Below, in pieces: positions 27,049 through 64,000 of a DNA stretch of 64,000 nucleotides (within the stretch, counting starts at the first letter, position 1; each line of letters starts with the position of its first letter). A program made the position numbers and the translations under genes. The notes beneath the pieces are model-generated. The model was not told where the DNA came from. It worked only from the letters and a program-made list of their open reading frames with translations, and did not search any database. Where the stretch lies: contig CAVZSQ010000017.1 in NCBI GenBank assembly GCA_963777955.1, positions 231,737-295,736 on the forward strand, given 5' to 3'. This DNA comes from Calditrichia bacterium (lineage in GTDB: Bacteria > Calditrichota > Calditrichia > JAJRVZ01).

Positions 27049-27186
27049 GAGTTCCTTAGTTCCTTAGTCCAGTTCCTGACCCTCCCCTCTGTCCCCTCCC
27101 TTTCAGTCCGGCGGCTGCCGGACTGAAAGGGAGGGGATGAAAGGGGTGGGTTACTCAGGAACTCAGGTACTCAGGAACTCAGGTAC
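27049..27186. repeat. Large imperfect palindromic REP/MITE-like element (arms ~65 bp) ending in ACTCAGGW octamer tandem repeats
   Basis: Left arm gagttccttagttccttagtccagttcctgaccctcccctctgtcccctccctttcagtccgg. Its reverse complement is recapitulated on the right after the centre cggctg. The core ccctccctttcagtcc...ggactgaaagggagg is repeated at 36862. Confidence 0.7.
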
Positions 27187-27231
27187 TATATTATTTTAAC
27201 ATTGAAAAGGGATTGAATAAATTGTTAGATT

Positions 27232-31365: not shown

Positions 31366-31480
31366 AAAAGGGACAAAAGGGACAAAGGGACAAAGTCGGA
31401 GGTCATCGCGAACAGATACCGCTGATTATAGTACAGGCGGAATGTACTCAGGTACTCAGGTACTCAGGAACTCAGGTCCT
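31366..31480. repeat. Mosaic intergenic repeat: (aagggacaa)x3 + aaagtcggaggtc + acaggcggaat + (actcaggt)x4
   Basis: Shares the 13-mer aaagtcggaggtc with 56100, and ggacaaagg / tacaggcgg(g)aat with 60523 and 60612. Octamer tandem as at 27155. Confidence 0.6.
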
Positions 31481-31767
31481 CAGAAACTAGAAGACTGATC
31501 GATCGATTTGGCCAGCTGGAAATCACGGTGGGTGAGGCCTTTGGCCGAGTGGGTACTTAAACGCAATTGCACCCGGTTGTAACTATTAAGAATATCCGGG
31601 TGATGATCCTGTTGTCCGGCAAGTTGGGCCACCACATTGACGAAAGCTATGGCGCTGTCGAAATCCTTGAATACCCATTCTTTCTGAATGGCATTGTCGA
31701 CATAATTCCAATCCGGCAATTCCTGAAGTTGCGCTGCGATTTCCTCGGTCGAAAGTTTTTTGGACAT
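31480..31767 (-). CDS. Pterin-4-alpha-carbinolamine dehydratase
   Basis: PCD/DCoH motif (EDHHPD variant QDHHPDILNSYNRVQLRLSTH). Confidence 0.85.
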   Translation of the reverse strand: MSKKLSTEEIAAQLQELPDWNYVDNAIQKEWVFKDFDSAIAFVNVVAQLAGQQDHHPDILNSYNRVQLRLSTHSAKGLTHRDFQLAKSIDQSSSF

Positions 31768-36860: not shown

Positions 36861-36974
36861 CCCTCCCCTCTGTCCCCTCCCTTTCAGTCCAAGGACTGAA
36901 AGGGAGGGGATAAAGGGGTGGGTCTTTATGGGCGCATTTTATGTGCGCCCATGCCGGGCAGATATTTAAAATAA
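36843..36974. repeat. Second copy of the palindromic element (36862..36955) flanked by 19 bp direct repeats gggcagRtatttaaaataa (36843-36861, 36956-36974)
   Basis: ccctcccctctgtcccctccctttcagtcc-aagg-actgaaagggaggggataaaggggtgggtc plus a second hairpin gggcgcattttatgtgcgccc. The flanking direct repeat duplicates the last codons and stop of the S9 peptidase gene. Confidence 0.65.
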
Positions 36975-45955: not shown

Positions 45956-45980
45956 TCGCAGACGTTCCACGCAGAGGATA

Positions 45981-46066
45981 AAAAAGCCAACGAATAAATC
46001 GCTGGTTTCCATGCGCTCCCAAAGGGGCGGCACCCGCCAGGTCTATCCTTGTAACTGTTAATATTA
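45981..46066 (+). repeat. Cassette-boundary-like ~80 bp repeat (terminator hairpin + catgcgctcccaaaggggcg hairpin + tctatccttgtaactgttaata tail), copy A
   Basis: Aligns with copies at 52775, 59049, 56290 and 60690, all in the same orientation. Confidence 0.7.
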
Positions 46067-46246
46067 CCTGTTAAGAACTGCAATCAATTCCCGGGAATAT
46101 TTTACACTCCAGTTACATTATTCATATTACTATGTACAATGACCGCACAGAAGTATATGATCTTTTAACAATAAATTATCTTATTGCGGGCGGACTGTTG
46201 CAGGTGAATATGTTTAAACATAATTATTACTGAGAGGACCAGGACA

Positions 46247-47663
46247 ATGAGAGTGAAAACAACACAAGGGCATGAGCTAGATCTGAAGCAGGACATCTTC
46301 GATGGTCTGAAAATGCGTTTACGGGGGCCGCTGTTCCTGCCCGGTGATGCCGGCTACGAGGAATCCCGGACCGTCTGGAATGCCATGATCGACCGTCGTC
46401 CTGCGGCTGTTGTGCGCTGCCTCGGGAAAGCCGATGTGATAGCCTGCGTACAGTTCGCGCGCGAAAATGATATCCTGCTCTGCATCAAAGGGGGAGGACA
46501 CAACATCGCGGGCCTGGCCACGGCCGACGGCGCACTTATGCTCGATATGTCGCTTATGCGTGGTGTATGGGTGGATCCACAGAGAAAAATCGCCCACGCT
46601 CAGGCGGGTTGTCTGCTTGGTGACGTGGATCGTGAAACGCAGCTGCATGGGCTCGCTGCCGTACTTGGTTTCGTGTCGCTCACGGGCGTTGCGGGACTTA
46701 CTCTCGGCGGCGGATTCGGTTATCTGACCAGGCGCTGGGGTTGGACGACGGACAATGTGGCCGGAATGGAAGTAGTGACTGCCAACGCGCAACTGGTACG
46801 GGCCAGCCATGATGAGAATGCCGATCTATTCTGGGGGCTGCGGGGTGGCGGCGGGAACTTCGGCGTGGTGACCGGTATCGATTATGTGCTCCATCCAGTC
46901 GGTCCTGAGGTTGTTGGCGGCGTTGTAGCCTGGCCGGCCAGCGAAGCGCCAAAGGTGTTGGAGTTGTACCGTACACTTACTGAGAAGTCCCCGCTTGAAC
47001 TTACACTTGCCCTGCTGATGCGCCCTGCGCCTCCGGCGCCATGGCTGCCCAAGGAGATGCATGGCAAGCCGATTGTAGCATTACTGGCTTGTTACAGCGG
47101 AAAACCCGCAGAAGGCGAGAAGATCGTTGCCCCCATCAAGTCGTTTGGACACCCTGTTGGCGACATGCTGGTACGCACGGCCATATACGCAGTTGCAGTC
47201 TTTGCTGGATGCCACGCAGCCAAAAGGCCGGCGTTATTACTGGAAGAGCGAGTACCTGTCAAGCGTAGAACCGGCCCTGTGCGGTAAAATCATCGAACAT
47301 GCGGAAAAAATCAGATCGCCGCACTCGGCGGTGATCCTGTTCCAGATCGGAGGTGCTCTGAATCGGCTTGAAAATGAGCATTCTCCTGTCGGCAATCGCA
47401 ATGCGCGTTATGTACTCAACATTCCGGGCTCATGGGAACAGGCCAGTGAAGACCTGGCACACGTCGAATGGGCCCGGGCAGCCTGGAACGACATGAAATC
47501 GTTTTCCACCGGAGGTACGTACATCAACTTCCTGACCGAGGAAGAAGGTTCCGAGCGGACCGCGGCAGCGCTGGGCACGGGACTGCAGCGGTTAGCCGAG
47601 ATCAAAGCGCAATGGGATCCGCAGAATTTGTTCCGCACCAACCGCAACATCAAACCGGCCTGA
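46247..47663 (+). CDS. FAD-linked oxidase (FAD_binding_4 + BBE-like C-terminal domain). Frameshift ~47190. GC-rich block
   Basis: FAD-binding PCMH motifs (CIKGGGHN, GGGFGYLTRRWG, LRGGGGNFGVVT). C-terminal part (...YYWKSEYL...NIKPA) is in ORF 47127..47663. Roughly 58% GC, against ~45% in neighbouring genes. Confidence 0.7.
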
Positions 47664-47687
47664 TATGTATTCAATAGAGGAGTCAGT

Positions 47688-48122
47688 ATGAACAGATTGC
47701 AATTTTCAATCGTCATCAAGGCCCCGCGGCAGAAAGTGTGGAGCAAGATGCTGGACCAGGAGGGTTATCGCACCTGGACTGCCGACTTCGCGGCAGGTTC
47801 ATACTATGAAGGGTCCTGGGAGAAAGGGGAAAAGATCCGGTTTCTGATTCCCGATGGCAGCGGGATGATCTCGGTAATTGCCGAAAACAAACCGTTCGAA
47901 TTTATTTCGATCAAGCATCTTGGTTTCATCAAAGACGGTGTGGAGGATACGGAGAGTCCGCAGATTAAGGCCTGGGCGCCGTCATTCGAGAATTACACCT
48001 TCGGCGGGATCAAAGGCGGAACCGAACTGAAAATTGACCTGGACATCCTGCCGGAGTGGGAAGAGTTCATGAAACAGGCCTGGCCGAAAGCACTGGCAAA
48101 GTTGAAAAGGATTTGCGAATAA
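47688..48122 (+). CDS. SRPBCC (AHSA1/START-like) family protein
   Basis: Size and pattern of Aha1-like SRPBCC proteins. Co-located with the GC-rich oxidase. Confidence 0.5.
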   Translation: MNRLQFSIVIKAPRQKVWSKMLDQEGYRTWTADFAAGSYYEGSWEKGEKIRFLIPDGSGMISVIAENKPFEFISIKHLGFIKDGVEDTESPQIKAWAPSFENYTFGGIKGGTELKIDLDILPEWEEFMKQAWPKALAKLKRICE

Positions 48123-48205
48123 TCGCAATAATCAAAATAATCTCCCCCCCTTTAATTGCAATTAAAAAGTTTTTCAGATTTAAACTTAGCCACCTGATTC
48201 GTGGT

Positions 48206-48256
48206 GCTTCGTGTAATTTTTGTTTCAAGCAGACCTTCGGCACGAAGAAACACGTA
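48206..48256. repeat. Second short repeat family (cttcgtg / cacgaag hairpin with agaccttcggcac core). Inverted partner at 58920..59000
   Basis: Shared segments: cgtgtaatttttgtt is the reverse complement of aacaaaaaattacacg, agaccttcggcac is the reverse complement of gtgccgaaggtct, and cacgaagaaacacg is shared directly. Confidence 0.5.
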
Positions 48257-48504
48257 GAATATTTCTTTTCTGAAATAAATCTTGCCTTCACTTATGAATT
48301 GGGTAATTTATAAAAGTTAAACCAGCCTCTTCCAGACAGTAACAGTATTATTCTAAGAATCGTTAGCCATCGGCTGGTATCCATCCGCATTTTATCAGTG
48401 AAATATTTCTTTAACGAATTGTATGATGATTAAAAAAGATGATATGAGTTTTAGTATTCTATTTATTAATGAAGTCAATTGTCAATAAAGTGTAGGGAAA
48501 ACCC

Positions 48505-50870
48505 ATGAAAAAATTAATTTTATTAATAAGTCTAATTTTGATCCTCCAATTTTTATTTGGCTTTAAAAATTCATCATCAATTAAACCAAAGTCAGGCATG
48601 AATAAACTGCTTGGTGAACCTGCAGCAACGTTACTCAACATAAATAATGTAGCTCATTGGATAAAATCGGACGGAATATCGGCCAGAGACCCTTATTACG
48701 ACGGAGATGGCATTATTTTCCCCAGGCACACCGCAAATGTTGTTTTTGCCGATGGCATTTTATGGGGCGGGCAGGTAAATGATGGTTCACACCCCGTTAC
48801 GGGTGGGCGGCAGTACTTATGTTACAGGTTTAGTACCGGGAGCTATACTGGGAATTGGCACAGGTAATGTCGAAAATCCAGATGATCCGGATGTAAGAGT
48901 CTGGCGGGTACGCAGGAACTGGGAGACCGCAGATTTTTCCGGTGAAGTTGCAGAACATGACGGGTTATTGAGCATAGCAGACATACGGCAGCAATATCAA
49001 ACTGATTGGAATGAATGGCCGGCAGCCAAAGGTGCACCTTTTGAGGACGTGGATGACGATGGTACATTCGATCCGCAGATTGATATTCCGGGTATTCCCG
49101 GATCAGATCAGACCATCTGGTATGTTGCAAATGATATTAATGCAGGATTGTACTATGATTCACCGCCCATAGGACTTGAAATGCAGGTCACTATGTGGGC
49201 CTACTACAGACCGGAAAACGATCCTTTCAGAGATATCGTGTTCAAGAAGGTCCGCCTGATTTATAAAGGCACATCTGGCATACCCGCAAATTCTACTATT
49301 GAAGATATGTATATAATGCAATGGTCCGATCCTGACCTGGGAGATTATAAGGATGATTATGTTGGTTGTGATTCATCGCTCTCAATGGGATTCGTTTATA
49401 ACAATTCTACAATTGATTTAGATTTTGGCGGCTACGATTTACTTTCCCCTGCTTTTGGATATGTACTTCTGCACGGACCGGTAGTGTACAGTCCGGGTGA
49501 TACGACTCTGGTAGATTTTATGCCTGTAGCTGATCACAGGAATTTGTCCATGTCTTCCTTTTTATATTACTAGGAGGGGGGGAATTGCGGATGAACCATA
49601 TCATTGGTATTGTCTAATGCGTGGATTACGTCTATCCTGTCAGCCATGGATTAATCCGCTAAGCGGGGAGGAAACAGTTTATCCGCTGGCCGGAGATCCA
49701 ATTAGCGGGGAGGGTTGGGTTGATGGTATTTCTGACCCAGCAGGTGACCGCAGAATGGGTATAACCAGCGGCCCGTTCAGTATGGCCCTCGGTGATACAC
49801 AGGAAGTCGTCATGGCCCTGGTTGGAGAAATCGGCAGTAAAGGCGGCCAGGCCTATTTGCAGAACATCTCCGGAATGAAAAATAAAGCCGGGAGTATTAA
49901 AGGATTCATAAAAAACAAAATGGCAGTATATATTCTAACGGAATCAACGGTATCTGTCTTGCAGGAAAGCCAGTTAAAAGCAGCTTACATCCTTTTTGAT
50001 CCCGCTTTGACCGTAAGTGCCCTGCAGTGGGAAATCATTTCAAAACCGGCCGGCAGTAATTCCACGCTATCTGCGACCAGCGGAGATTCGGTCTTACTCA
50101 CTCCGGATCAGGAAGGTATATACAAAGTTTCTGTAACAGTTAATACTGTTGAAGGATTTTCAGCATCGCATACTGCAGAATTTTATGCTTCGGCAGATAC
50201 ACCGCCTGTTGCGGATTTCAGTTTAATCCCGGAAACCATTATCCTGGGTAATTCCCTGCTGGCGGACGCTTCTGTTTCCTATGATCCGGAGGAAGATAGC
50301 CTGGAGTTTACCTGGGATATTATTCCTGCCGATATTACACAATACTATGGTAACACAGTTGCCGGAACGGTCCTGGAAAATGGGGAAAAATATGATATGG
50401 TACCCACAGGTACCGGAGAATATACTGTTAATTTAAGTGTATCCGACAGTATATATGAAGATGATACGACCAGGGTATTTCATGTTGAGCCCAAAATGGA
50501 GAACATCTCGCCGGTCTGGTCCTTTCTTGATACAAACTGGTACAAGACAGATCAGTATTGTTTTTATGAGAATAAATTACTCATGGCCATAGAACCTCTC
50601 GATTTGGTCAGGGTTTACGATCTTCAGGAAAGTAATATGGTTATAGAAAGGGATCTAAGTATTGCTGATCCTGTCCGGGTTTACGGGATTGAAGATAGTC
50701 TCATGTACATAGGAACCAGGAGTTCTTCGGCTTCCTGGGGCCCCGGACGCTTGAGTATTTATCAACTGGAGCCCGATTGGGAGATAACTCCTGTTCTGGA
50801 GAATTATCTACCCCGGGACCACCGATATTTCTCGAATAACACTTCAGGGATGATAATTTTTACGTGGTAG
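48505..50870 (+). pseudogene. Large secreted LVIVD/beta-propeller-repeat surface protein, N-terminal ~790 aa, in three frameshifted ORFs (48505..48867, 48779..49573, 49617..50870). Probable T9SS cargo continued at 51031
   Basis: Signal peptide MKKLILLISLILILQFLFG. Consecutive overlapping ORFs in different frames with continuous similarity. LVIVD-like repeats (LVRVYDLQES..., PVRVYGIEDS...). Confidence 0.5.
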
Positions 50871-51030
50871 ATCATAAAACTATTACAGGATAGATTTTAA
50901 AACAAATCCTTCTTCACCGCTGATTTTAGCCCAGCATGCAGATGAGTAGCGTATATCTTCATGTTATACTGATATTGCCGGACAATATATATATATTAGA
51001 ACACCTGTTAGTGAACATGAAGTAGAGGTA

Positions 51031-51771
51031 TTGGACAAATTTTCGCTAGAACATGTTGCGTATTTGACCCTGCCGGGTTTTTCGCAAATCATTAACAGCT
51101 GTGACACACTCATGTTTATCGGTTTTTATGGTTCTGATTCGCTGCAGATTTATCGCGTGGCCAATCCCTTGCAACCCGTAAAATTAAGTACAATTGTTTT
51201 ACCCCCTTCCTTCGATTGGGTCGATGATATAAGTCATGGGATACGTTGTTCCGCTCAGTATGTTAAAAATAATATTTTGGCAGTTTCTACCGGAATCGGA
51301 ATACTATATTATGACATTACCGATCCGTTAAATACCGAGGTTAAAGGTGCCTGGTATGGCGGGAAAGGAGTATATGCCGGTGAGCATAATGGTGATCATT
51401 TCATAACGGGCTCAAGTATAATGGGATCGATAAAAGATACCTATTTTGGCTTTAATAAGGTCAATTTGGATTTTCCCATTTCAGAGGAAGAGTCTGACAA
51501 AGTGCCGGAAGGATACATGCTTTATCAGAACTACCCGAATCCATTCAATCCGCATACAACCATGAAATTTGCTTTGCCCAGGACCGGGTGGGTTACATTG
51601 CAGGTGTATAATGTTCTTGGTCAGCAGGTCACGACGCTGGTATCGGAAAAGTTGAATGCCGGTATTCATAAATATGAATGGCAGGTCTCAGATCAGCCCA
51701 GCGGGATTTATTATTGTAGAATGAAAGCAGGCAAGTTTGAGCAGGTGCGGAAGATGATTTTGCTCAAATAA
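51031..51771 (+). CDS. T9SS C-terminal sorting domain protein (LVIVD-repeat region + Por_Secre_tail CTD)
   Basis: C-terminal ...YMLYQNYPNPFNPHTTMKFALPRTGWVTLQVYNVLGQQV...GIYYCRMKAGKFEQVRKMILLK, a type-A T9SS CTD. Followed by a perfect intrinsic terminator. Confidence 0.75.
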   Translation: MDKFSLEHVAYLTLPGFSQIINSCDTLMFIGFYGSDSLQIYRVANPLQPVKLSTIVLPPSFDWVDDISHGIRCSAQYVKNNILAVSTGIGILYYDITDPLNTEVKGAWYGGKGVYAGEHNGDHFITGSSIMGSIKDTYFGFNKVNLDFPISEEESDKVPEGYMLYQNYPNPFNPHTTMKFALPRTGWVTLQVYNVLGQQVTTLVSEKLNAGIHKYEWQVSDQPSGIYYCRMKAGKFEQVRKMILLK

Positions 51772-51772
51772 G

Positions 51773-51803
51773 AAAAGCCAGCGAATAAATCGCTGGCTTT
51801 CAT
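51773..51803 (+). terminator. Rho-independent terminator after the T9SS cargo gene
   Basis: aaaagCCAGCGAataaaTCGCTGGcttt, a perfect 8 bp stem, 5 nt loop and T-tract. The same hairpin forms the 5' module of the repeat family at 45981, 52775 and 59049. Confidence 0.75.
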
Positions 51804-52057
51804 TCCAGAACAGCATTCTTTTAAGGATATTTATTTTTTCGCAATTCACAGTTTGTTATTTATACTGTATATGTGAATCAGTACGGATTAAAATTGAGAT
51901 TACATCCTGGTTATAGATTTTTTTAGAGACAGCAGGCGAAATGGTCAACTCGAAGCGTCTTTTTAAAAATATTTTGATTGTTTTAAGATTATCATGATTC
52001 AATATGTGGAGTAGTTCTACTCAATAATATTTTAGATAAACAGATTTGAAGAGGTAG

Positions 52058-52600
52058 TTAAATGAGGAACTTTAACTTTTTCTTTTTTCTGACACTTATT
52101 GTCACGGGTATAATTGGTTGTAAGGGCACGGGCAATTCTCCATTGGTATCGATCCCCGCAGTTTGGCCAGTCCAAAATCGGTAAGTTCTGATTTTCCCTT
52201 CCTCAGTCAGCAGGATATTGTCGGTCTTCACATCCCGGTGAATAATCTGGTGACAGTGGGCGTGTCCCAATCCTTCGGCCAGTTGCAGGCTGTAATCAAG
52301 AATTTCGGTTATGGAAAATGCTTTATCTTCTGATTTTAATTGTTTGAGTTTGGATTTCAGAGTACCACCAGAAATATATTCCAGTACCAGGTATTTCTGT
52401 CCATTAACCTCGTCCACATCGTAGATAGTTTCAATATTGGGATGATTGAGGGCTGAAATCGTTTTGGCTTCCTGCTCAAAACGGGTGACGTCTTCGGTCG
52501 AAACGTTGAGATGGAGAGGCAAGAACTTCAAGGCAACATCCCGGTCGAGTTTGGTGTCGTGGGCTTTGTAGACTGATATTAATCCGAAATAAAGAATAGA
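52058..52600 (-). pseudogene. Serine/threonine protein kinase remnant (subdomains I-VIb only)
   Basis: ...VYKAHDTKLDRDVALKFLP...HRDVKTDNILLTEEG... The catalytic loop is present, but the reading frame breaks before DFG, and the N-terminus starts inside the glycine loop next to AT-rich non-coding DNA. Confidence 0.55.
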
Positions 52601-52774
52601 AAGAAAGACTTGATATATTAATTAACATTAAAAGAGATTGCAATATATTTGACCTAATTCGCAATTCATAGAAAGATACATTCTTAAAAATCGACTGATA
52701 ATAATCTCCTTCGGAGTGAGAATATTCTGCAGGGGGTATTTAAGTTTAGTAAGTAGGCCAAAAGGTTAAAATAA

Positions 52775-52853
52775 AAAAAGCGACGAATAAATCGCCAGAC
52801 TTACATGCGCTCCCAAAGGGACAGCGCTAACTCTATCATTGTAAATGGTAATA
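52775..52853 (+). repeat. Same ~80 bp repeat family, copy B
   Basis: aaaaagcgacgaataaatcgccagac-ttacatgcgctcccaaagggacagcgc-taactctatcattgtaaatggtaataa. Confidence 0.7.
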
Positions 52854-53204
52854 ATTCTCTCAAAATAATGCTGTTCGGTGAACAGGGTATATTTTGTTTT
52901 TTCCATCAATTATATTAATTATATTGATAAAACTAATATTTACTCAAGTTATAACGACTTTCAGATTCTAGATTTTCGTGCAGATATCACAATGTAGATT
53001 CAAATTTGAAATCTTAATTAGAGATTACAGGGTTTTGAATTTATTCTTACTTTAATAAATGGATTGATAGTGCTTATATATATTGGGCTGTTTCTGTTCT
53101 CAGCTAATCTGAGTCATGATATCAAATAATACAAATCGATCATCTCTTGCACGCTTTGCCTGGCTTTCAATTGCCGCGGCTATTTCACCATTACACTCAA
53201 GGCC

Positions 53205-54072
53205 ATGGCGTATTGGCTGACGGGTTCGATTGGTCTGCTTTCAGACGCGCTGGAATCCTTCATCAACCTTGTCGGCGCTATAATGGCGTTGGCGATGTTG
53301 ACCATAGCAGTTCGCCCGGCGGATGAGGACCATGCCTACGGCCATAGTAAGGCAGAATATTTTTCAAGCGGCGTTGAAGGGACATTAATTCTGATTGCCG
53401 CCGTAAGTATCGGCGTTGCGGCTATTCAACGGTTTATTACTCCAAAGCCACTTGAGCAGATTGGACTCGGATTGGGGATTTCAATTGTGGCCTCACTCAT
53501 TAACCTGTGTGTCGCGCTGGTCTTACTGCGAGCCGGTAAGCGCCACCGTTCCGTTACGCTGGAAGCCAATGCACAGCACTTGCTGACGGATGTGTGGACA
53601 TCGGCGGGTGTGCTGGTTGGGGTAGGTGCGGTAGCACTCACCGACTGGGATAGACTAGACCCGATTGTTGCCTTCCTGGTCGCTGGTAACATCATCTGGT
53701 CGGGAGTGCGCATTGTGCGCATGTCCGTATCCGGGCTGATGATACGGCTTCTTACCGGTTGAGGATCAAAACACGATACGAAAAGTGTTAGAACCGTATA
53801 TTAAAAACGGAGTACAATGTCACGCGCTTCTTACTCGTCAATCAGGTACCAGACGGTTTGTGTCATTTCATGTATTAGTTCCTGGTACATGGACCTGGGA
53901 ACGTGGTCATCGGTTAGTGGAAAATATAGAAGCTGACATTCGCCAGGCCTTACCGAGTGTTACAGTGCTTACTCACTTAGAATCGTTAAATGACCCTGCT
54001 TCATGGGAGGATACGAGTTTAGACCGCACAAAAATCCAACCGGATGATTCTCCGGCAACGCATAACAATTGA
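53205..54072 (+). CDS. Cation diffusion facilitator (CDF) family transporter. Frameshift ~53760. GC-rich
   Basis: TM region with ...[10 protein letters not shown]... (CDF signature) in ORF 53205..53762. C-terminal cytoplasmic domain in ORF 53785..54072. The ORF is open from 53130, so the N-terminus may be slightly truncated. Confidence 0.65.
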
Positions 54073-54181
54073 CACGCTCTGTGTACGGGTGAAGCGGGCC
54101 AGGAACAGATAAATTTACCTCATTTTAGCGGCGCGGCTTGGCCGGCGATCCGTGTAGCTGGAATTGCTGGATTATTTGTAT

Positions 54182-56087
54182 ATGGATGATTTGATGAAGC
54201 GGATTCGATGGATCTGGATTCTCCTGGCTTTATATGGATTGCCGCTGGAATCCGGGAATTACCCAGAAACTCTTAATTCTCAGTGCTGACGGCTGCCGTC
54301 CGGACGCCCTGTTGAAAGCCGATGCCGCGAACCTTCGCGCTCTGGCTGACAGCGGCTTGTATACCTGGTGGGCTTTGAGCCGTCCGCCCACCAAAAGCGG
54401 ACCGTGCTGGTCGTCGATCTTCACCGGCGTTTGGAACGACAAGCACGGTGTCACGGACAACACCTTTGCCAACTCCAGGTTCGACCAATACCCCATGCTT
54501 ATTCAAGCGGTTGAAGAACGCTGATCCTTCTTTTTATTCCGGATGGTTTGTTTATTGGCCCAATCTCGGAACTGACATGCCCCACGGCGCGGATGTGGCT
54601 GCCGGAGACTGGTCCGACGCCAACACCCTGGAACGAGCCATCAACTTCTTGAGTGACGAACAAACGGACGCGCTGTTTGTTCATTTCGGCGCCGTTGACG
54701 CTGCAGGGCATGCATCGGGCTTCGATCCGGAAAGTCCCGAATACATCAACGCCATCCATGTCGTGGACGGCCAGGTTGGCCAGGTGATCTCCGCCATGAA
54801 GTCGCGTCCAAATTTTTCAAACGAACATTGGATGGTGATTGCCCTGACCGATCATGGAGGATACACAACCCACCATGGCGGCACGATGATCGAGGAAATG
54901 CGCACGTTTTTCATCATATCCGGGGATGACGTGCCACGCGGAGAGATTCCGCACGATTGGATAAATAAGTCATTTCGAGTTCCGCCCTACGGTTTGCGAT
55001 TGAATGGAGCCGGAGATCATGTCGCGATCCCGGATCGTGCGGATTACCATTTCGGTTCCGGTCAGGACTTCACCGTTGAATTGTGCATCCGAACGGCCGG
55101 CTGGTCCGGTACCCCGGTTTTGTTCGCCAATAAGGACATGCGGAACAAAAAGAATCCCGGATTTGCGTTTGTATTGATTGACGAGGGCAAATGGCAGGTC
55201 AACGTAGCGGATGGAACTCACGAAAAAAACATTTCAGGGCCCATCATCGCGGACGACCACTGGCATCACCTCACCGCCGTGTTCCGGCGCGGGGGCACGC
55301 TCACGCTGTTTCAGGACGGAATCAAGACCGGGGCCGTGGACATATCAGGGATCGGGAGTGTGGACACACCGTACGGATTCGTCCTCGGCCAGGACGGGAC
55401 GGAGCAGCCGAACCACGTTTGTCCCGGGCAGTATTAACGAAGTCCGCGTCTGGAAAACGGCACTTCCGGACACCCAGGTTCAAAGATGGATATTCACCCC
55501 GGTCACGCCGGAACATCCCGATTATTCCGACCTGCTCGGCTATTGGAAAATGGACGACGGGCAGGGAACATTGATCAAAGATTCGAGTCAGCCCGCAAAC
55601 GACGGGGCATTCACGGGAACTAATCCTGAGTGGATCTTTCCGGATGCAACCGTCGAAACACTGGCTTTCGATTCCTGCCAAACCGCCAAGACCGTTGACC
55701 TGACTGTCACCGCCCTCGCCCATTTCGGCATCGAAATCGAACCGGAATGGAATCTGGATGGAAGAAACCTTGTCCCGGCAAAATCGCCGGACGCGGTCCG
55801 GGAATTATTGGTTCTTCCGGTCTTCCCCACGATTCTGGAGAATTATCCCAATCCGTTTAATTCAAGCACCAAGATCAAATTCCAAATTCCAAATTCCAAT
55901 TTTGTAACTTTGGAAATTTATAACCTGCTTGGCCAGAAAGTAGTGACCTTAATGAAAGAAAATCTTAGGGTTGGTGAACGCATACGGTCAGAATGGAACG
56001 CCAGCAGGCTTTGCCAGTGGGATTTATTTGTATCGGCTGCAGGCAGGTGAGTATGAGCAGGTTAGGAAGATGATTTTACTCAGGTGA
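54182..56087 (+). pseudogene. T9SS cargo protein: alkaline-phosphatase-superfamily (NPP/phosphodiesterase-like) domain + LamG/concanavalin-like domain + Por_Secre_tail CTD. At least 4 frameshifts. GC-rich
   Basis: Signal MDDLMKRIRWIWILLALYG. LLILSADGCRPD...DHGG metal-site motifs. LamG (DFTVELCIRTAGWSG...DDHWHHLTAVF). CTD ILENYPNPFNSSTKIKFQIP...EIYNLLGQKVVTL... then a final shifted ...YRLQAGEYEQVRKMILLR. Pieces lie in ORFs 54234..54524, 54448..55437 and 55211..56050. Confidence 0.6.
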
Positions 56088-56090
56088 TTG

Positions 56091-56353
56091 AAGGGTAAAG
56101 TCGGAGGTCTGGCACTAGGCAGACTGAAGATCTACCGCCTGCCTGATATCAGGCAGGCGGTAGAGGTAATGGATAATGAAAAGAGTCATTCCGGCCAAAG
56201 GTGAATTGGCTGGTAGTAATACAGGCGGGAATCTATCTGTTGTAATGAATGATTACTAATTTACTACGTTGTTCACCTGTCTATATCTGATACAAACCCA
56301 AACTTCCAGGCGCTCCCAAGGGGGCGCTGAAATCTATCATTGTAAATGGTAAC
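56091..56353 (+). repeat. Full-length (~260 bp) member of the repeat family, copy D, containing a perfect 14 bp-stem hairpin (56130-56161) and the 3' module
   Basis: Aligns along most of its length with 60515..60752. Ends ...ccaggcgctcccaagggggcgctgaaatctatcattgtaaatggtaac. Internal palindrome ctaccgcctgcctga-tat-caggcaggcggtag. Confidence 0.7.
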
Positions 56354-56682
56354 TTAATATACCTCTCTGCCTTCCGCTAAATAACATTACTTACAGGTAG
56401 TCAGTGATCCAATTTTCAGCATTAATTCGATGAAATGAAGGACTTATATTTATAAAGAAAAATTACATTGAAATTTGAAATGGGAGTAGTTATAATATCG
56501 CTTATACTCATCCTTTTCTAGTACAGACGGAGTTTTTCAAGTTATTACCTGCTAATCCGATTGAAAATTCGGGCAGTTCGTATGTTTATAAATGTTTATT
56601 TGGATACCTGATAAAGATCAGCAATATGTACAAAATAATTTATGATTTTACGCTTTATACAGGATTTGACCAGGAGGTTTAT

Positions 56683-58338
56683 ATGAAGTTAGTAAAAAAA
56701 TTAGCCAATGCTTTCATTATCTTTTGTTTCCCGCTTATTGGATTCACTCAAACTGCAGATGAGTTTATTGCCAGGGCGGAAGGCTTTAATCAGGCCGGTG
56801 ATCTTGCCCAGGCGGCAAAGGTTATGGAAGAGGCGGTGCAAAAATTTCCCGAAAATTCAAGTGTGCATTCATACCTGGGCCTGTACCTGGGAACACAAGC
56901 CTTTATGACCAAAAACAATATGGAAGCAGGGCGGTTAATCGGAATTGCTTTTGAGCAACTGGATCAGGCTGTAGCACTGGATGCCGATAATCCCGTTGCC
57001 CGCTTCCAGCGCGGACTGTTGAGTATAAAAATGCCGGCATTTATGAACAAACTTGATGCGGGCATTGAAGATCTGCTGTTGGTAATAAAAATCGATCAGC
57101 AGGCCGCCGGTAAAATTCCCCGGGAAATGATTACTGCCACCTATGATTTTTTAGGTGAAGCGTATCAGAAAAAACAGGAGAAAGAAAAATCTATCGCTGC
57201 CTGGGAGAAAGTGATTGAAATTGTTCCAGGAACGGCTCTGGCGAAGAAGGCGCAGGAAAATATAGCAGCATTAAATAAACCGGAATCGACAGCCTCATTA
57301 AATCTGGAAAAATATACGGATAAAACCGATTGATGAATTCAACCAGGCTTTAAGTAAGGAACCGGATAATGCAGAATTGCTGATCGTATTAGGTAAAGCA
57401 CACCTGGATGCCGGAAATTATGAAAAAGCCTGCCGAGGTATTACGCAAAGCGATTCATAGCGATTCTACCAAAGTGGAAGCATACAAATTACTTATTCAA
57501 AGCATTGGTGAAATTGCAGATCAAGGGTATGATAAAAGAATTTATGACGATACAAATTTTCGTACCAATCTTGCCTTTGAACTGGTAAAGGTAGCAGATA
57601 AAGCGGTAAAAATTGCCCCGGATGACCTGGAATTAAAACTGATCCGCGGCAGGATTGGTGTGCTGATGCCGTTCTTTGTCGATGCAGCTGGAGCAGGCTA
57701 TGGCTGATCTGAATCTGGTAAAGAACAGTAATGCTGCAGACGAACTGAAAGCGGAGGCAATCTACTGGCTTGGAATGGCCTATCAGAAAAAAGCAACGAC
57801 CAGCTGGATAGAGGTGGTCGGTAAATATTCAGCCACGAATGCCTCCAAACTGGCCCTGGAAAGCATGCGGCCGGACATTAAACATTTTGATGAAACGAAA
57901 TACAAAAAACCGTTTATAGTCATAGATTTTCTGTTAGGTTTCCGCGACGAGCTGCCGCCGCAGACCGCCGTATGGATTGAGGACAATAACGGCAAATTCG
58001 TGAAAACGGTTTATGTCTCAGGATTCAGCGGTTTTGCCAGGGAAAAGCAGGCAAATTTATTAAAATGGTCGGAATCTTCCCAATTTAAAGATGTGGATGG
58101 CGTTACCGGAGCGAGCATTACTTTAGGGCAGCATATCTATGTCTGGGACTTAAAAGATTTGCAAGGGCTAAAGGTAAAACCGGGTGAGTATCTGGTTAAA
58201 ATCGAAGTGATGTACTGGCCCAGTATGGAATATGAGTGCAGCTCGGCGCCGGTTAAAATCGGGCAGAAAGAGGAAAAGGTACTTTTCAAAGAAGGTAAAT
58301 TAATTCCTTATGCCGAGCTGAAATATTTCTCTGATTAA
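56683..58338 (+). CDS. TPR-repeat protein with C-terminal DUF2271 domain (secreted). About 3 frameshifts
   Basis: Signal MKLVKKLANAFIIFCFPLIGFTQT with RBS caggagg. TPR-like helices in ORFs 56626..57333 and 57408..57707. DUF2271-like C-terminus (VWIEDNNGKFVKTVYVSGF...VDGVTGASI) in ORF 57676..58338. Confidence 0.5.
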
Positions 58339-58819
58339 AAAAATACTTTTCTTACTTATATTTTCCATACTGGTAATTTTCTGTGATCAATCTATCAGAA
58401 AACCTGAAAATTATAATGTTCAAAATATTCTGATCGGGCATTGGAGGCATAATTATAATGTTAGAGATATTTATGGAATTTCACGATCAGGTCCAATGTA
58501 TGAATTGATATTAAATGAGGACTTAACATATTCAATAGCAACTCCAAAGGAACGGTATGGTACACATACCATATCCTCCGAACAATATTATTATGTTGAT
58601 AAAGGTTCATTTAATATAAATGTAGATACACTATTCCTGGTTACTTCCCATCAAAATCATTTGAATCAGGCATTTATTTTTGAATTAGATTTTAAAAATC
58701 AAAAAATGGATTTATATGCTCCGGATGAAGAGCAAATATCCGCTGATATTGAGTTGATAGGGGATTGGTATAAAATTAACAGGTTTAGTAAAAGGATTGG
58801 TATTAGAGATGTTTATTGA
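58337..58819 (+). CDS. Lipoprotein, hypothetical (TTG start overlapping the previous stop)
   Basis: The ORF is open from TTG 58337, encoding (M)KKILFLLIFSILVIFCDQS lipobox signal, in frame with ORF 58496..58819. Confidence 0.45.
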   Translation, partial: KKILFLLIFSILVIFCDQSIRKPENYNVQNILIGHWRHNYNVRDIYGISRSGPMYELILNEDLTYSIATPKERYGTHTISSEQYYYVDKGSFNINVDTLFLVTSHQNHLNQAFIFELDFKNQKMDLYAPDEEQISADIELIGDWYKINRFSKRIGIRDVY

Positions 58820-58919
58820 AGCAAATCATAAAGATGGCTCAAAATATATATTCTGAACTTGATTGGACATTTATTTGCGAAGATAAACAAGATTTTGGAA
58901 TTGATCTCCTTGTGACTTA

Positions 58920-59000
58920 GTGCCGAAGGTCTCAGCCGTGGGTCTGCGTGCGACTAGGCTCAGTGAACAAAAAATTACACGAAGAAACACGAAGAAAAAG
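58920..59000. repeat. Copy of the second short repeat family, opposite orientation to 48206
   Basis: gtgccgaaggtctc...gaacaaaaaattacacgaagaaacacgaag. Confidence 0.5.
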
Positions 59001-59048
59001 ATTTTTAATTTATATCTGCGTTGATCTGAAACGACCAGCGGTTAAAAA

Positions 59049-59127
59049 TAAAAAAGCCAGCGAATAAATCGCCGGCTTCCATGCGCTCCCAAGGGGGCGC
59101 TACGTCTATCATTGTAAATGGTAATTA
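59049..59127 (+). repeat. Same ~80 bp repeat family, copy C
   Basis: aaaaagccagcgaataaatcgccggcttccatgcgctcccaagggggcgctacgtctatcattgtaaatggtaattac. Confidence 0.7.
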
Positions 59128-59133
59128 CTTCAA

Positions 59134-59668
59134 CTATAACATTTTACGCTCAGCATTGAATCCTGATGATGTTGAAATTTTATAAAAATAGGTACCTGTA
59201 GAATATTTGGCTCCATCAAATTCATAACTGTATGAACCTGGATTTAAATTCATGGTTTCGGATTCAATTATCTGACCGGAAATTGTATATATGGAAATCG
59301 TTACCTGATCTGATTCAGGAACAGAAAACTTGAAGGTTGTCTTAGGATTAAATGGATTTGGATAATTTTGAGATGTGACATAATCTAAAAGCGAAATCTA
59401 GATTATTTATTTTAACTGGATTAACAGAAGGAGTAGTTTTAATCAGCCAAGCATTATATTCAACAGCACCGAATGAATTTATTTTACCAGTTATAATATA
59501 CCCTTCATCTATAGTCTGCTGGACTGAAGAACCTACATCAGTACCACTTCCCCCAAACGTTTTTGTCCAGAGCGTATCCACTTGAGAATAAATATTAGAC
59601 AAAGATAAAAGAAGTACAAAAATAATACTTTGCAAGAGTTGTTTTGTGGATTCTTTATGTATATTCAC
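59134..59668 (-). CDS. Small T9SS-secreted protein (signal peptide + Por_Secre_tail CTD). Frameshift ~59400
   Basis: N-terminal part in ORF 59348..59668 (signal ...IIFVLLLSLSNIYSQ). C-terminal part in another frame: ...SQNYPNPFNPKTTFKFSVPESDQVTISIYTISGQII...GTYFYKISTSSGFNAERKMLL. Confidence 0.55.
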
Positions 59669-60012
59669 TTCCTCCCTATAATATATTTTCTTTTCAGGGA
59701 GGCATCCACTTTGTTTTTTAAAGCAGCCAGCGACCCTCGAATTTAAGTCCGGGAATCTTACTCTGATTTAAAAGAAACAATGCAGATCATTACATGGAAC
59801 TGAAGCACGAAATATTAAATTCCGCTATAATAAATTGTGATCCTGCTCCAGGAAATCAGGTTATGCTTTGGAGGGGGTATTTCTATAGTCTTCAGGACGA
59901 ACATATCCAGGATGTGAAGAAGACAGTCTTGCTGAAATAAGTGTGGTTTAAAGCAGGGGGATAGCCGAAAAGCTTACCCCTTGAGCTTAGGTCTGTCTAC
60001 CCGATTTACTGC

Positions 60013-60351
60013 TTACTTTTCTGCATTAATGAGCAGTTTTGGAGGTGTACCTGGGAGTGGTTTACTGAAATCGATGTTGTGATATTCGTTTATTCTCTGT
60101 TTAAACCAGACATCGAACTCATGATTTGAACTTGCTAACTTAGACATAAAATTATCCGCTCCAGGTCCTTCATGTAATGCCGCCACGACAGGACCCGCAG
60201 GTGTTTCGGCCAGCCAGGCTAAGTGCCGGGTTAAACCATATCTTGAGTTGAAGTCTTTAAATTCCTTGACTCTGCCATTTTGTAAATCTTTGGCAAATTG
60301 CTGCCATTTTTCCAATTTGCCATCTACGATGGGCGCTAAAATTAGTGACAT
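60013..60351 (-). CDS. Hypothetical protein (112 aa)
   Basis: Intact ORF with moderate GC. No family recognised by eye. Confidence 0.35.
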   Translation of the reverse strand: MSLILAPIVDGKLEKWQQFAKDLQNGRVKEFKDFNSRYGLTRHLAWLAETPAGPVVAALHEGPGADNFMSKLASSNHEFDVWFKQRINEYHNIDFSKPLPGTPPKLLINAEK

Positions 60352-60514
60352 GATATTCCCCCTTTTAGGTTTATTAAGTTTAATGTAATGTCAGGTATAA
60401 CGGATTGGACTAGATAATAATTTCAAATAAATATTAAATTTGGATTTATTAGTGAGAATAGAATTCAAACGCCCCTTCGGATTAAGGAAATTCTGAAGGT
60501 GGTATTTTATTTTA

Positions 60515-60752
60515 GGGGAATGGGTAAAGAAGGACAAAGGTCCAGGGCCAAAGGTAAATGGGTAATACAAAGAGTCATTCCCGCCAAATGTGCACCTTGC
60601 CTGGTAGTAGTACAGGCGGGAATCTATCTATTGTAATGAATGATTAGTAATTACAAGTTACCAATTGTTACAACCCATTTCTGATACAAATACAAACTTC
60701 CCATGCACTCCCAAGGAGGCGTCGCCGCTAGGTCTATCATGTAAATGCTGAT
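60515..60752 (+). repeat. Full-length (~240 bp) member of the repeat family, copy E
   Basis: ...aaagagtcattcccgccaaatgtg...ggtagtagtacaggcgggaatctatctattgtaatgaatgattag...ctgatacaaatacaaacttcccatgcactcccaaggaggcg...tctatcatgtaaatg. Collinear with copy D. Confidence 0.7.
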
Positions 60753-61111
60753 AAGTCTTTTAGTGCATATCTTCCTTGATAATACTGATTATTAAATATA
60801 TCTTATCTTAAGAAATCTCCTTTCAATCACACATCGGGAACGATGTTGAGCAATATGAATTACTCTTGTATCATATCCGATTGGCGCATTTATTAGCAAC
60901 AGAAAATGGCGTAGTTCTCGATACAAAAGGAGCAATATTTTCGCCCTGCGATCACTTCGGATTGCAAGAAATCTGTAAGTATCTGGCTGAGAAAATAATA
61001 TAACAGAAATAGATAATGCTTCTCTTCGACGATTAAAATACGAATATCAATAAAATGAGAATTCTTAGACTGAAAATTGATAAACTTTGATATATAAGAA
61101 AGGAGCCTTTA

Positions 61112-64000
61112 ATGTGTATCCGCTATATCGATCTTATTTTGTCTCTGTTTATTTTTATTTTTTTATGTACATGTGGAAATGAGAATCAGCGGGCTCCGGA
61201 AAATCAGGCATTGAAATCTGAATATACCCCCATCAAACTGGTAAAGACCCAGGCAGATACGGCAGGTTGCGGGGAAAGGATAAAAATCTTTAATGAAAAG
61301 CTGGAAAAATCCTTTATCAAGAACCAGGATCTTGATAAAACTATTCAAGCCGCATTAGAACTTGCCCCATTGGCTCAAACCCTGAATATGACCAGGCAAT
61401 TATTCGAGGCGGTCAGTCAACAATATTCTTCCGGATTCTTTACAAAGATCAGCAAAGAGAAAAAACAACAGGCCTTAAGCAATCTGATAACCGAGGGTAT
61501 GCAGGAACAGGATCCGGATCAACGCAACTTCTACCACGAACTAATCTATTATTTATTTCAGTACCATGATTATTCCGAGGACTGGTACGCTTACTGTAAT
61601 GAAAACAAGATCCGGCCCGGTCAGGAGGTTTCTGTTGCGGTGTATGACTACCGCAATTATGATGATAAACAATCAAAAAAGAGTTATAATTTATTCTTCC
61701 AGGTCAGTAAACTGGAGTTGGATGAAAATCTAAAGCCACAGGAATTCAATATCATCCGGCAGGATACACTTTATCAGGTCAGCGATTACTATGAGGTCCT
61801 GACCGATACTTTAAAGGAACCGGGTATCTATCGACTTACTGTTTACAATGATAAAAACTTCAGTGATTTTTATGTGCAGGTCACACTGCTGGACCTGATC
61901 ACCAAACGAACCCCGGACCAACTCCTGGTTTGGGTCTCCTCTTTTAAGGACAGTGTAAAAGGCCCCTATGATGTGGTATTGCTTTACGGGCAGGATAAGC
62001 ACATTAAAGTTAAAAGTAAAGAGAATGGTACGGCCTATTTTACTATCGATGCCGAACCAGAGGCCGCGTCGGATATCCAGGTTGCCGCAGCCCAAGGCGA
62101 ACATTATGCATTTTCCAGTGATCGTATGTACTGGAGCTATGTGGACAGAATTGATCAGCAAGCCTATATCTATTTTGACCGTCCGATATACCGGCCCGGA
62201 CAGAAGGTTCACCTTAAAGGAATTTTCCGTTCCGTATTACCCAATGGTTCGCTCAGGCCAACGTACCTGGATTCCATCACAGTAGAAATCAACGATCCCA
62301 ACTATGAAGAGACTGTACTGTTCCACTTTGACGGTAGATGAATTCGGGCAGTTTGGTGATTCTTTAAACCTGGCAGAAGACGCTAAACATGGAAATTACC
62401 GAGTTGAAATATCTGATCCTCATGTGCCTGGCTCCGGTAAGGGCCGGCAGCCGATCAGTTTGCTTGAGACCTATTTTAGCGGTTTCATTGTAGAATCCTA
62501 TAAAAAACCTGAATTTAAAATCACAGTTGCGCCGCAGAATAAATGGGTGCTCCTCAATGAGCAGGCCGCCTTTGATATTGCCGGCGAATATTATTTCGGC
62601 GCCCCGCTGGCCAATTTGGAGATCACACTGCGCTGGTATACCCAAAACATGCAGTACTATTTCCCCTGGTGGACAGGCAGTCAATCTCAGCCATATTTCT
62701 ATCCCACAGGTGACAAGACGCTGCTCAAGGAAGAAAAAATTAAGTTGGATGTAGCCGGTAAAGCTGTAGTTAAATATCAGGCCAAGAACATGCAGGACTA
62801 TGGTTTCCTGATCCTGGAAGCCAGGGCCACAGATGCCTCCCGCCGCCTGGTATCTACCGAGGCTCAGGTTAAATGCGTGAAGTACGATGTATACCTGAAT
62901 CTATCCACAGATAAATGGACATATAACCAGGGCGATGCTGTTAAAGTGACTGTATCTGCCTTTACCATGGATGAGAAACCTTACCAGGGCAAATGCAGAC
63001 TGAGCCTGACCAAGGACCGCAGTATCGAGTTGGAAAAGGAATTATTATTTGATAAAAATGGCGTAGCAAGATTCGGATTTATGCCCAAAGAGACCGGTGC
63101 ATATACCCTGAAGGTTGAAATAATGGATTCCCGGGAGAGGGCTGTAGTTGTAACCGGAGAATTTAACGTCCAGGAAAAAAAGACTATTACCTGGGATTGG
63201 GAACAAATCACCCTGAAAGCAGACAAGGAAAAATATGCAGTCGGTGACACCGTAAAGATAACCCTTGATACCGGTGCGGATGATGTCCGTTCACTGTTCA
63301 CGGTTGAAGGGGGTAATTTAAAGAACTACGGATTGGAAACCATCAAAGAACACACAGCTGACTACTATTATGTTATCCCTCAGGACCAGGGCACCAATTT
63401 TTACATAGGCGCCGCCTTTTCCGGTCGCACCAACATGGTTTATCAAGATATCCGTGTGGTCGTGGTGGATTCTGCACTCATCCTTAACCTACAGTTGGCC
63501 GGTCCGGATAAGCTTAAACCGGGAGATACGTATGAAGGAGAAATCACCCTGGCCGACCGACAGGGCCAACCTGTAGCCGGCTGTTTCTCACTGGCCCTGG
63601 TGGATGAATCAATTTTTGATGTGGCTGAAAAATCCACTTATCAACGCAACAGTGACGGCTACGGGCTTCTTTTTGACATATTTGGTGACTTGAGTTCAGA
63701 ACAGGAGGAAGAAGAAATTTCTATTTGGGATTATTTTACCAAAAGGCTCGATAACAAGGTACAAAACAATATATCTGATTTTGATCAAAAGTATATAAGC
63801 CAGCTGGATAAAATGGGTAAGGTACTGGCTGAGCCGGAAGCACAAGAGATTAGCAGATCCCAGAACGCTGCTGCAAGATATAAGGACGGAAAACGTTCTG
63901 CGATGGAGAAAGAAATTGCCGGTGAAGGTGTGCTGGCATTTTTAAGTGCCGGTGGTAGTGCTGAGAACGAAATAGCCCTTGATGATGTTTTGGGTGGTGT
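61112..64000 (+). CDS. Alpha-2-macroglobulin family lipoprotein (MG-domain protease inhibitor), 3'-partial. Frameshift ~62340
   Basis: Lipobox signal ...LSLFIFIFLCTCG. Repeated MG/Ig-like domains. Continuous in a second frame from ~62340 to the window end. Confidence 0.65.

Follow-up and report, generated by a model that had tools for sequence, protein, structure and literature searches.

The repeated element between corA and the alpha-2-macroglobulin gene

The DNA studied here is a 64-kb stretch (the window) of contig CAVZSQ010000017.1 from a Calditrichia bacterium. Between corA and the alpha-2-macroglobulin gene it contains an array of accessory gene units, and the boundaries between the units carry copies of a short conserved element, named c1 to c5 from left to right. 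The original prediction, made from the bare sequence, described five plus-oriented copies built of a hairpin and two further modules, and a sixth site with the hairpin only. Searching the whole window, we found the 20-nt core of module 2, CATGCGCTCCCAAGGGGGCG, five times with at most three mismatches (46010, 52804, 56307, 59080 and 60702), always on the plus strand, where shuffled sequence gave an expectation of 0. Module 3, TCTATCATTGTAAATGGTAAT, has four matches at the same threshold, and the fifth copy differs by a 1-nt deletion. The hairpin AAAGCCAGCGAATAAATCGCTGGC is found at 45983 and 59053, stands alone at 51774 as had been described, and is degenerate at 52775. It is therefore a module of c1, c2 and c4 only; c3 and c5 have no hairpin and share instead an extended repeat of ~190 bp (56168-56353 and 60557-60760). 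No copy of the core, module 3 or the hairpin is present in positions 1-45,900 of the window, a region that Pfam identifies as housekeeping DNA (tsaB, rimI, accD, surE, guaA, glmS, holA and others); the other 49 kb of the window as a whole are free of copies.

On the plus strand, the hairpin has an A-run ahead of it and no T-run behind it. When the window was scanned for terminators, each of the four hairpin copies was called, and only on the minus strand (coordinates in Table 1). The element must therefore be read on the minus strand, and it is not the co-oriented 3' terminator accompanying each plus-strand unit that the original prediction had taken it for. Each copy then begins with an arm of ~28 nt (TTACAAnGATAGA-N3-4-GCGC), continues with CCCCTTGGGAGCGC(C)A, and ends, where these are kept, with the hairpin and its T-run. 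In the orientation of a transfer RNA (tRNA) the arm reads ..ACCAYTTACAAKGATAGA, followed by 3-4 variable nucleotides and GCGC. The case shows that strand assignment matters when reading terminators. The hairpin may also halt convergent plus-strand transcription, and would for this reason have looked like the terminator of the plus-strand genes.

tRNA-Glu in the junctions and at the same locus in relatives

The identity of the element became apparent from related DNA. A search of species-representative genomes and metagenome contigs with the two-module pattern found the element in a Calditrichota metagenome-assembled genome (MAG; L001) and in six metagenome contigs (L003-L008). In viral contigs the pattern had no match and the arm alone gave one chance match in coding sequence; in collections of phages and plasmids, BLAST with the 45-nt junction returned chance matches only. 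Modules 2 and 3 of these copies are ~90% conserved, and the neighbouring hairpin has a different sequence each time, always with an A-run ahead; on the minus strand it is a stem-loop followed by TTTTTTATTT. In L004, L005 and L007, a small gene for a GIY-YIG nuclease (PF01541) lies on the minus strand immediately past the hairpin. Three further contigs, L012-L014, were retrieved via homologues of this GIY-YIG protein. They have the same layout of hairpin and GIY-YIG gene, but with an intact tRNA-Glu(UUC) gene ahead of it, whose 3' end reads ...GGGGTTCGAAT-CCCCTTGGGAGCGCCA; the intact genes end in ...GGGGTTCGAATCCCCTTGGGAGCGCCA.

Comparison with this gene shows what module 2 is: its reverse complement, CCCCTTGGGAGCGC(C)A, matches the 3' end of tRNA-Glu(UUC) exactly. 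The piece comprises the last 15-16 nt of the tRNA: the 3' strand of the T-stem, the 3' strand of the acceptor stem, the discriminator base and C(C)A. This sequence or a near variant follows directly after the arm in all five window copies and in 12 copies on nine other contigs. The arm, which is conserved across nine other contigs, stands in the place of the tRNA sequence ...GGGGTTCGAAT. Moreover, homology can be recognised between the hairpin of the window, GAAGCCGGCGATTTATTCGCTGGC-TTTTTTATTTTT, and the terminator that follows tRNA-Glu in L012, GAAGCCAGTGATTTACTCACTGGC-TTCTTTTATTTT; the hairpins behind the intact genes of L012-L014 resemble it closely. The window hairpin is very probably the intrinsic terminator of tRNA-Glu, the tRNA's own rather than that of the unit genes. 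We conclude that the element is very probably composed of an arm, the 3' end of tRNA-Glu and the tRNA terminator. The original prediction had reported no integrase and no attC-type core in the array; neither was found by us, although a core of attachment-site type is visible in module 2.

The junctions lie at the tRNA-Glu locus in relatives. In L004, L005 and L007, the junction is positioned upstream of the terminator and GIY-YIG arrangement that L012-L014 have behind their intact tRNA-Glu. Past the GIY-YIG cassette, L012 has a displaced 3' part of tRNA-Glu, a second hairpin (GCCTATGTT...AACATAGGC) and flanking DNA; in L001, the arm and the tRNA fragment are followed by the same second hairpin and ~75 nt of the same flank. 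L006 and L007 have downstream hairpins in common. Junction c2 of the window is orthologous to the junction of L001. Their blastn alignment starts exactly where the arm has its outer end (window 52853 corresponds to L001 3335), runs through the hairpin and ~200 nt of flank, and after a deletion in the window resumes at 85% in a Ser/Thr kinase gene, a remnant of which is left in the window (85% nucleotide and 82.5% amino acid identity by blastn and tblastn). Past the arm, the DNA is unrelated from one genome to the next: a CDF transporter and a phosphatase in the window, a secreted protein of 1047 residues in L001, and the bacteriophage exclusion (BREX) genes PglZ/BrxA in L004. Since homology breaks at the arm and the DNA beyond it is unrelated, the arm forms the border of the variable, inserted DNA. 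The terminator side of c2, including the kinase remnant, is the native downstream flank of tRNA-Glu.

A second array was found on L005, a contig from estuary sediment, where three co-oriented junctions occur within 5.6 kb (L005:940-5560). The units are of one and two genes, namely a Kelch-repeat gene and a two-gene unit of cargo for the type IX secretion system (T9SS). A GIY-YIG pseudogene lies at the terminator end of this array, downstream of the tRNA sequence, and the tRNA fragment is of the variant GGGAGTAC/GGGAGTGC.

In module 2, the GCGC of the arm pairs with the GCGC of the tRNA end in a stem of 7 bp. Among 13 copies, no stem pair changes on both sides, and the changes that occur break pairs; the covariation that was proposed as a check of the element is absent. 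Variants of the tRNA half that are of host type (GGGAGTAC in L005 and L008; the GTAC type) are uncompensated in the arm half. The two halves of the stem thus vary independently, which fits a hybrid junction of element DNA and host DNA. The inverted repeat GCGCCCC / GGGAGCGC around CTTGG looks, by its sequence, like a pair of core-type half-sites of a recombinase. In c3 and c5, a second arm-like motif, TTACAAyAGATAGA, is found ~64 nt away on the opposite side of the core, and in L016 TTAACCAAGGATAGA follows the hairpin. The attP regions of integrating elements have arm-type sites repeated on both sides of the core, and we interpret the extension of c3 and c5 as the opposite arm of the adjoining islet's attachment region. 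That the second arm-like site leads into the 3' end of another tRNA is doubtful, as the implied acceptor stem would be atypical. An attC or dif-like site was rejected, for the lack of matching boxes and of dyad symmetry.

It is highly improbable that the element functions as an RNA or is a generic transcription signal, whether as a small RNA of the minus strand that ends in the terminator, as a tRNA-like minihelix, or as the terminator of the upstream genes. The layout on the minus strand, with a conserved 5' stretch, a short stem-loop and a U-run terminator, resembles that of bacterial small RNAs, and the hairpin comes directly after the stop codons of corA, of the LVIVD gene and of the small gene of unit B. 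Nevertheless, none of the Rfam 15 covariance models matched the window at gathering score and no relevant one matched 45-62 kb even at E<=1; with the stem not covarying either, the small or structured RNA considered in the original prediction is unsupported. In the 12 copies inspected, no promoter precedes the arm at a constant distance, conservation ends exactly at the edge of the arm, and the gene next to the hairpin is divergent, not convergent, in L001, L004, L005 and L007. A generic terminator behind core genes, which the original prediction had itself named as an outcome that would refute it, is contradicted by the absence of any copy after the ~40 housekeeping genes of 1-45 kb. Three related candidates were tried and rejected: a promoter in module 3 (sigma-70, sigma-54, extracytoplasmic function or Bacteroidota-type), as no partner hexamer occurs at a fixed distance in the same 12 copies; a short open reading frame (ORF) starting at the ATG of module 2, as this ATG is missing from most copies outside the window; and a hairpin in module 3, as its one-sided A/C variation is never compensated.

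Origin of the array

We consider it fairly probable that the array was made by integration and accretion at tRNA-Glu. We argue that circular DNA would be put into the 3' end of tRNA-Glu by a site-specific recombinase whose gene lies in another part of the genome, with the crossover at or beside CCCCTTGG. The ~28-nt arm would be the terminal sequence of the inserted DNA. Every integration would restore the tRNA, and the old 3' end and terminator would be displaced, still fused to the arm of the newcomer. Repeated integration followed by decay could then leave a tandem array of small integrase-less islets, like cis-mobilizable elements (CIMEs), loaded with T9SS cargo, a transporter and other accessory genes, many of which are now frameshifted. 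The intact tRNA-Glu and the recombinase would be expected beyond the right end of the window, on the minus strand. In this scheme, we infer the recombinase, the order of events and an integration origin of all five copies. The scheme is supported by the make-up of the junctions, their place at tRNA-Glu loci in relatives and the start of variable DNA at the arm, and also by the second arm-like sites of c3 and c5, the array of L005, the base composition of the units, which is off the genome baseline, and the independent variation of the two halves of the stem.

If the array is recombinational, its mechanism would not be an undescribed one, as the original prediction supposed, but the well-described integration into tRNA or transfer-messenger RNA (tmRNA) 3' ends with tandem accretion (PMC3146451, PMC5704250). 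The nearest parallel is given by the ssrA islands of Dehalococcoides, where a 20-bp direct repeat has a conserved motif of 15 bp beside it that bears no relation to ssrA, where the insertion point is in the T-loop, and where islands lie in tandem downstream of the tmRNA gene, some of them without integration genes (McMurdie et al. 2011, PMC3146451). As in these islands, the direct repeats of our arrays are co-oriented and equal a tRNA-like gene's 3' end, each repeat has just upstream of it a conserved motif that bears no relation to the target and marks an insertion in or next to the T-loop or T-stem, and the repeats bound strain-variable accessory genes in units of which some lack integration genes. 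The differences are that the target here is tRNA-Glu, a gene absent from the window, that the repeat is 15-16 nt long, that a terminator hairpin is kept in three of five copies, that the units measure 1.6-6.7 kb compared with ~10-30 kb in Dehalococcoides, and that no integration module (a dsiB-like serine recombinase) is present in the units. The pattern of the array also matches CIME accretion, as known from the accretion and mobilisation of ICEs (integrative and conjugative elements) and IMEs (integrative and mobilizable elements) (Pavlovic 2004; Bellanger 2011; reviewed in PMC5704250), except that the array has neither a partner ICE or IME nor any gene for conjugation or mobilisation.

Several observations weigh against such an origin. 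There is no tRNA gene in the 64-kb window, no integrase or transposase among its ORFs, and no recombinase in the retrieved loci of relatives; nor does any unit of the window or of L005 have a recombinase remnant (nine units without a mobility gene). CIME-type remnants are recombinase-less by definition, but the scheme requires that a recombinase exist somewhere. The units are very small, with one to four genes. The presence of the hairpin in three window copies requires, on our assumption, that incoming elements carried their own tRNA end and terminator. The distribution of c1 among relatives is a further difficulty. In L009 (corA 82% identical to that of the window), corA and the FAD oxidase gene are adjacent, with the spacer conserved on both sides and no element in it; a copy of the same subfamily is found after the FAD gene instead, 1.7 kb away. 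In L016/L010 (sister to L009; corA 88% versus 82%), a degenerate copy occupies the c1 spot. The c1 junction of ~85 bp was therefore either lost cleanly in L009 or gained twice, and a clean presence or absence of ~85 bp is not predicted by simple tRNA integration. The loss could have come about by slipped-strand deletion between the TAA repeats that flank the junction, across the hairpin. This is the only case of presence and absence seen between relatives, and it concerns the junction alone.

The same observation bears on the idea that the junction of ~85-95 bp (arm, tRNA-Glu 3' end and terminator) is itself a small non-autonomous mobile repeat of a repetitive extragenic palindromic (REP), palindrome-associated transposable element (PATE) or miniature inverted-repeat transposable element (MITE) type, which we regard as unlikely. 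Such a repeat would be moved in trans by a HUH-type enzyme (REP-associated tyrosine transposase, RAYT, or IS200/IS605-like) or by a recombinase recognising a GC-rich hairpin with a conserved single-stranded tail, and would have spread through the intergenic regions of accessory DNA. The clean presence of c1 in the window and L016/L010 and its absence from L009 would be expected of it, and it is this case that keeps the idea alive, although slipped-strand deletion would account for the loss in L009. The copies often lie 100-1000 bp from the ends of metagenome contigs, as multicopy repeats do, and no unit has an integrase. The co-orientation of all copies would be expected of strand-specific transposition of single-stranded DNA, the stem of module 2 has a T-G wobble on the plus strand where the minus strand has a C-A mismatch, and CTAC (GTAG when read on the opposite strand) comes after the palindrome, as it does in REP sequences. 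Like REP sequences, REPINs (REP doublets forming hairpins) with their RAYT, and IS200/IS605-derived elements, the junctions are intergenic, short and repeated, with an imperfect, GC-rich palindrome beside GTAG/CTAC, often next to terminators and without terminal inverted repeats or target duplications. They differ from these families in their low local copy number, in having no inverted copies or REPIN-like pairs in 64 kb and no RAYT or TnpA in the window, and in their palindrome, of which one half is derived from the tRNA and changes with the host uncompensated, so that the stem is not maintained by compensatory change. The hairpin beside the core differs between genomes and so cannot be the recognition element. 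At least five other contigs have the junction exactly at the tRNA-Glu locus and keep the native flank, a placement that would not be expected of random transposition. The terminator-associated MITE family suggested by the original prediction is weakened further by the ends of the element (AAAAAAGCC... and ...GTAAATGGTAAT), which are not inverted repeats, and by the lack of a consistent target-site duplication at the five window copies or between filled and empty site. A 7-nt direct repeat around copy L009b was rejected as a target duplication, as the region is full of this motif and the repeat is not seen at other copies.

The absence of any mobility-gene remnant could also be taken to mean that the units are true cassettes. 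In this third explanation, recombinase-less cassettes of one or two genes, each with a site of ~45 bp conserved in sequence (the arm and the tRNA-Glu-like core), would be stacked one after another and rearranged at the tRNA-Glu 3' end as primary site, by one recombinase acting in trans, in Calditrichota-like bacteria. The two independent arrays (the window and L005) consist of units of one to four genes bounded by co-oriented sites, the junction between two units has the layout arm-core-arm of the site of a circular cassette, and the cargo is adaptive and rich in secreted proteins, as in chromosomal integrons. The short units, the co-oriented bounding recombination sites and the lack of a recombinase inside the units are indeed shared with integron cassette arrays. 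The attC sites of integrons are conserved in structure and not in sequence, with R''/L''/L'/R' boxes and extrahelical bases. The site here has none of these structural features: it is conserved in sequence, contains a tRNA 3' end, has separate short hairpins and lacks RYYYAAC/GTTRRRY boxes. There is no intI, attI or Pc in the window, neither the recombinase nor the primary site was seen, and the genes are not all oriented the same way with respect to the site (those of units B-D are on the plus strand, those of unit A and L005 on the minus strand). As many of the cassette genes are pseudogenes, decay is suggested over an active platform, and the decay of ordinary islands needs fewer assumptions. 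Taking these points together, we find an integron-like capture platform distinctly unlikely. If it were true, integrase-less cassettes would be a second, sequence-defined cassette platform besides integrons, and a supply of T9SS cargo and of other surface or transport genes; otherwise the locus is one more tRNA-gene accretion array.

The idea of a recombination hotspot with a conserved boundary site has therefore stood in its main point, with the site and its strand changed: the element is best read as a tRNA-gene attachment scar of the ordinary kind, on the strand opposite to the earlier reading. In Calditrichota and relatives, an uncultured phylum, the arm with its tRNA-Glu fragment marks where horizontally acquired DNA has a boundary. 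As a junction marker, it can be used to delimit islands, to find the recombinase, and to trace T9SS cargo and defence genes such as BREX.

Units between the junctions and neighbouring elements

Table 1. Junctions, their extensions and the units between them (window coordinates)
Feature	Coordinates	Strand	Description
Junction c1	45978..46062	-	Between corA and the FAD oxidase gene; arm 46034-46062; tRNA-Glu fragment 46012-46026 (variant CCCTTTGGGAGCGCA); hairpin 46005-45987 and T-run
Unit D	46063..52771		FAD/BBE oxidase (frameshift 47177), SRPBCC/AHSA1, AT-rich T9SS LVIVD/PKD cargo (4 ORF pieces), solo hairpin, kinase remnant
Solo hairpin hp1	51773..51801	-	Without tRNA fragment and arm; directly behind the T9SS LVIVD gene (plus strand) and its stop codon
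Ser/Thr kinase remnant	52058..52531	-	5'-truncated (Pfam); orthologue is the kinase of L001
Junction c2	52772..52852	-	Arm 52824-52852; tRNA-Glu fragment 52806-52820; degenerate hairpin 52797-52781 and T-run
Unit C	52853..56167		Broken CDF transporter; frameshifted phosphodiesterase-LamG-DUF4983 T9SS cargo gene; own terminal hairpin 56131-56164
c3 extension	56168..56304	-	Second arm-like site TTACAACAGATAGA ~64 nt downstream of the tRNA fragment, then a GC-rich stem
Junction c3	56305..56353	-	Arm 56325-56353; tRNA-Glu fragment 56309-56323; no hp1
Unit B	56354..59044		Frameshifted TPR-DUF2271 protein; small protein, family not known
Junction c4	59045..59125	-	Best preserved; arm 59097-59125; tRNA-Glu fragment 59082-59096 (CCCCTTGGGAGCGCA); terminator 59080-59052, then TTATTTTTAA
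Unit A	59126..60556		Two small minus-strand genes, 59348-59668 and 60013-60351
c5 extension	60557..60699	-	89% homologous to 56180-56261; second arm-like site TTACAATAGATAGA
Junction c5	60700..60752	-	Degenerate; arm with 1-nt deletion; tRNA fragment is CTCCTTGGGAGTGCA

Pfam gave the gene content of the units as originally described (Table 1), and their different base composition was also borne out: against a baseline of 0.476 ± 0.022, the GC fraction is 0.559 in the FAD and SRPBCC genes, and 0.389 and 0.366 in the last two units, B and A. Interrupted genes are unusually dense in this accessory region. They comprise the FAD oxidase (46247-47663), the LVIVD cargo gene (48505-51771, in four ORFs), the CDF gene (53205-54072), the phosphatase-LamG gene (54234-56085), the TPR-DUF2271 gene (56626-58338) and the alpha-2-macroglobulin gene (61112-64000). 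The frameshift of the FAD oxidase is a +1 shift by a 1-nt insertion, outside any homopolymer. The array region looks like decaying accessory DNA, and its broken genes are either real pseudogenes or consensus or assembly errors from a mixed (heterogeneous) population.

The FAD/BBE oxidase (46247-47663 in the window; L009:1896-3311) has homologues of ~80-85% amino acid identity in MAGs of several phyla, labelled Gemmatimonadaceae, Nitrospiria, Ca. Loosdrechtia, Competibacter, Desulfobacteraceae and Calditrichia. Conservation at this level across phyla suggests a recent and broad horizontal spread. The Calditrichia MAG loci near these homologues (L017-L026) contain no junction and no tRNA. Two further elements adjoin junctions in relatives: one of ~100 nt with inverted CTCCGTG...CACGGAG motifs (L010:2880-2985 and L016:225-325), and one of ~200 nt with the ends GGCACTAAGGCAC...GTGCCTTAGTACC (L009:3340-3545). 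The corA-FAD neighbourhood thus shows itself to be a general insertion hotspot. In the literature, we found nothing specific on islands of Calditrichota.

The GIY-YIG genes of the related contigs belong to a mini-cassette of ~400 bp at tRNA genes (L012:9862-10380; L013 and L014; L007:70-600; L015:1856-2650), in which a terminator hairpin and an extended -10 promoter (TGGTATAAT) come with a gene for a GIY-YIG nuclease of ~90 residues. It comes right after tRNA-Glu and is followed by a copy of the displaced 3' part of the tRNA, in which the T-loop is split by a 62-nt insert of two hairpins (TCCCGATT...GTCGGGA). In L015, the same logic is seen at tRNA-Phe, with two tandem GIY-YIG genes. The mini-cassette looks like a selfish element of homing type with tRNA 3' regions as its target, and the GIY-YIG gene beside a tRNA recalls free-standing GIY-YIG homing-endonuclease genes such as the seg genes of phage T4. 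We found no description of such a mini-cassette in the literature, and nothing specific on GIY-YIG genes at tRNA genes of Bacteroidota. The window, on the other hand, has no GIY-YIG gene, and the GIY-YIG cassette has no arm; it is therefore a neighbour at the hotspot and not the maker of the junctions.

The window has two other kinds of intergenic repeat. A near-perfect palindrome of ~70 nt (ACCCTCCCCTCTGTCCCCTCCCTTTCAGTCC ... GGACTGAAAGGGAGGGGAT.AAAGGGGTGGGT) is present in two copies, at 27079-27151 and 36860-36925, whose left arms are identical at 31 of 31 positions; it is a separate REP- or MITE-like family. Tandem octamers (TACTCAGG/AACTCAGG, ~4-5 units) are found at 27136-27203 and 31429-31496, one of them beside the palindromic repeat. 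Finally, the ORF at 5666-7120 encodes a response-regulator receiver joined to a PglZ domain, the architecture of the T9SS regulator PorX, and this fits the abundance of T9SS cargo genes in the window.

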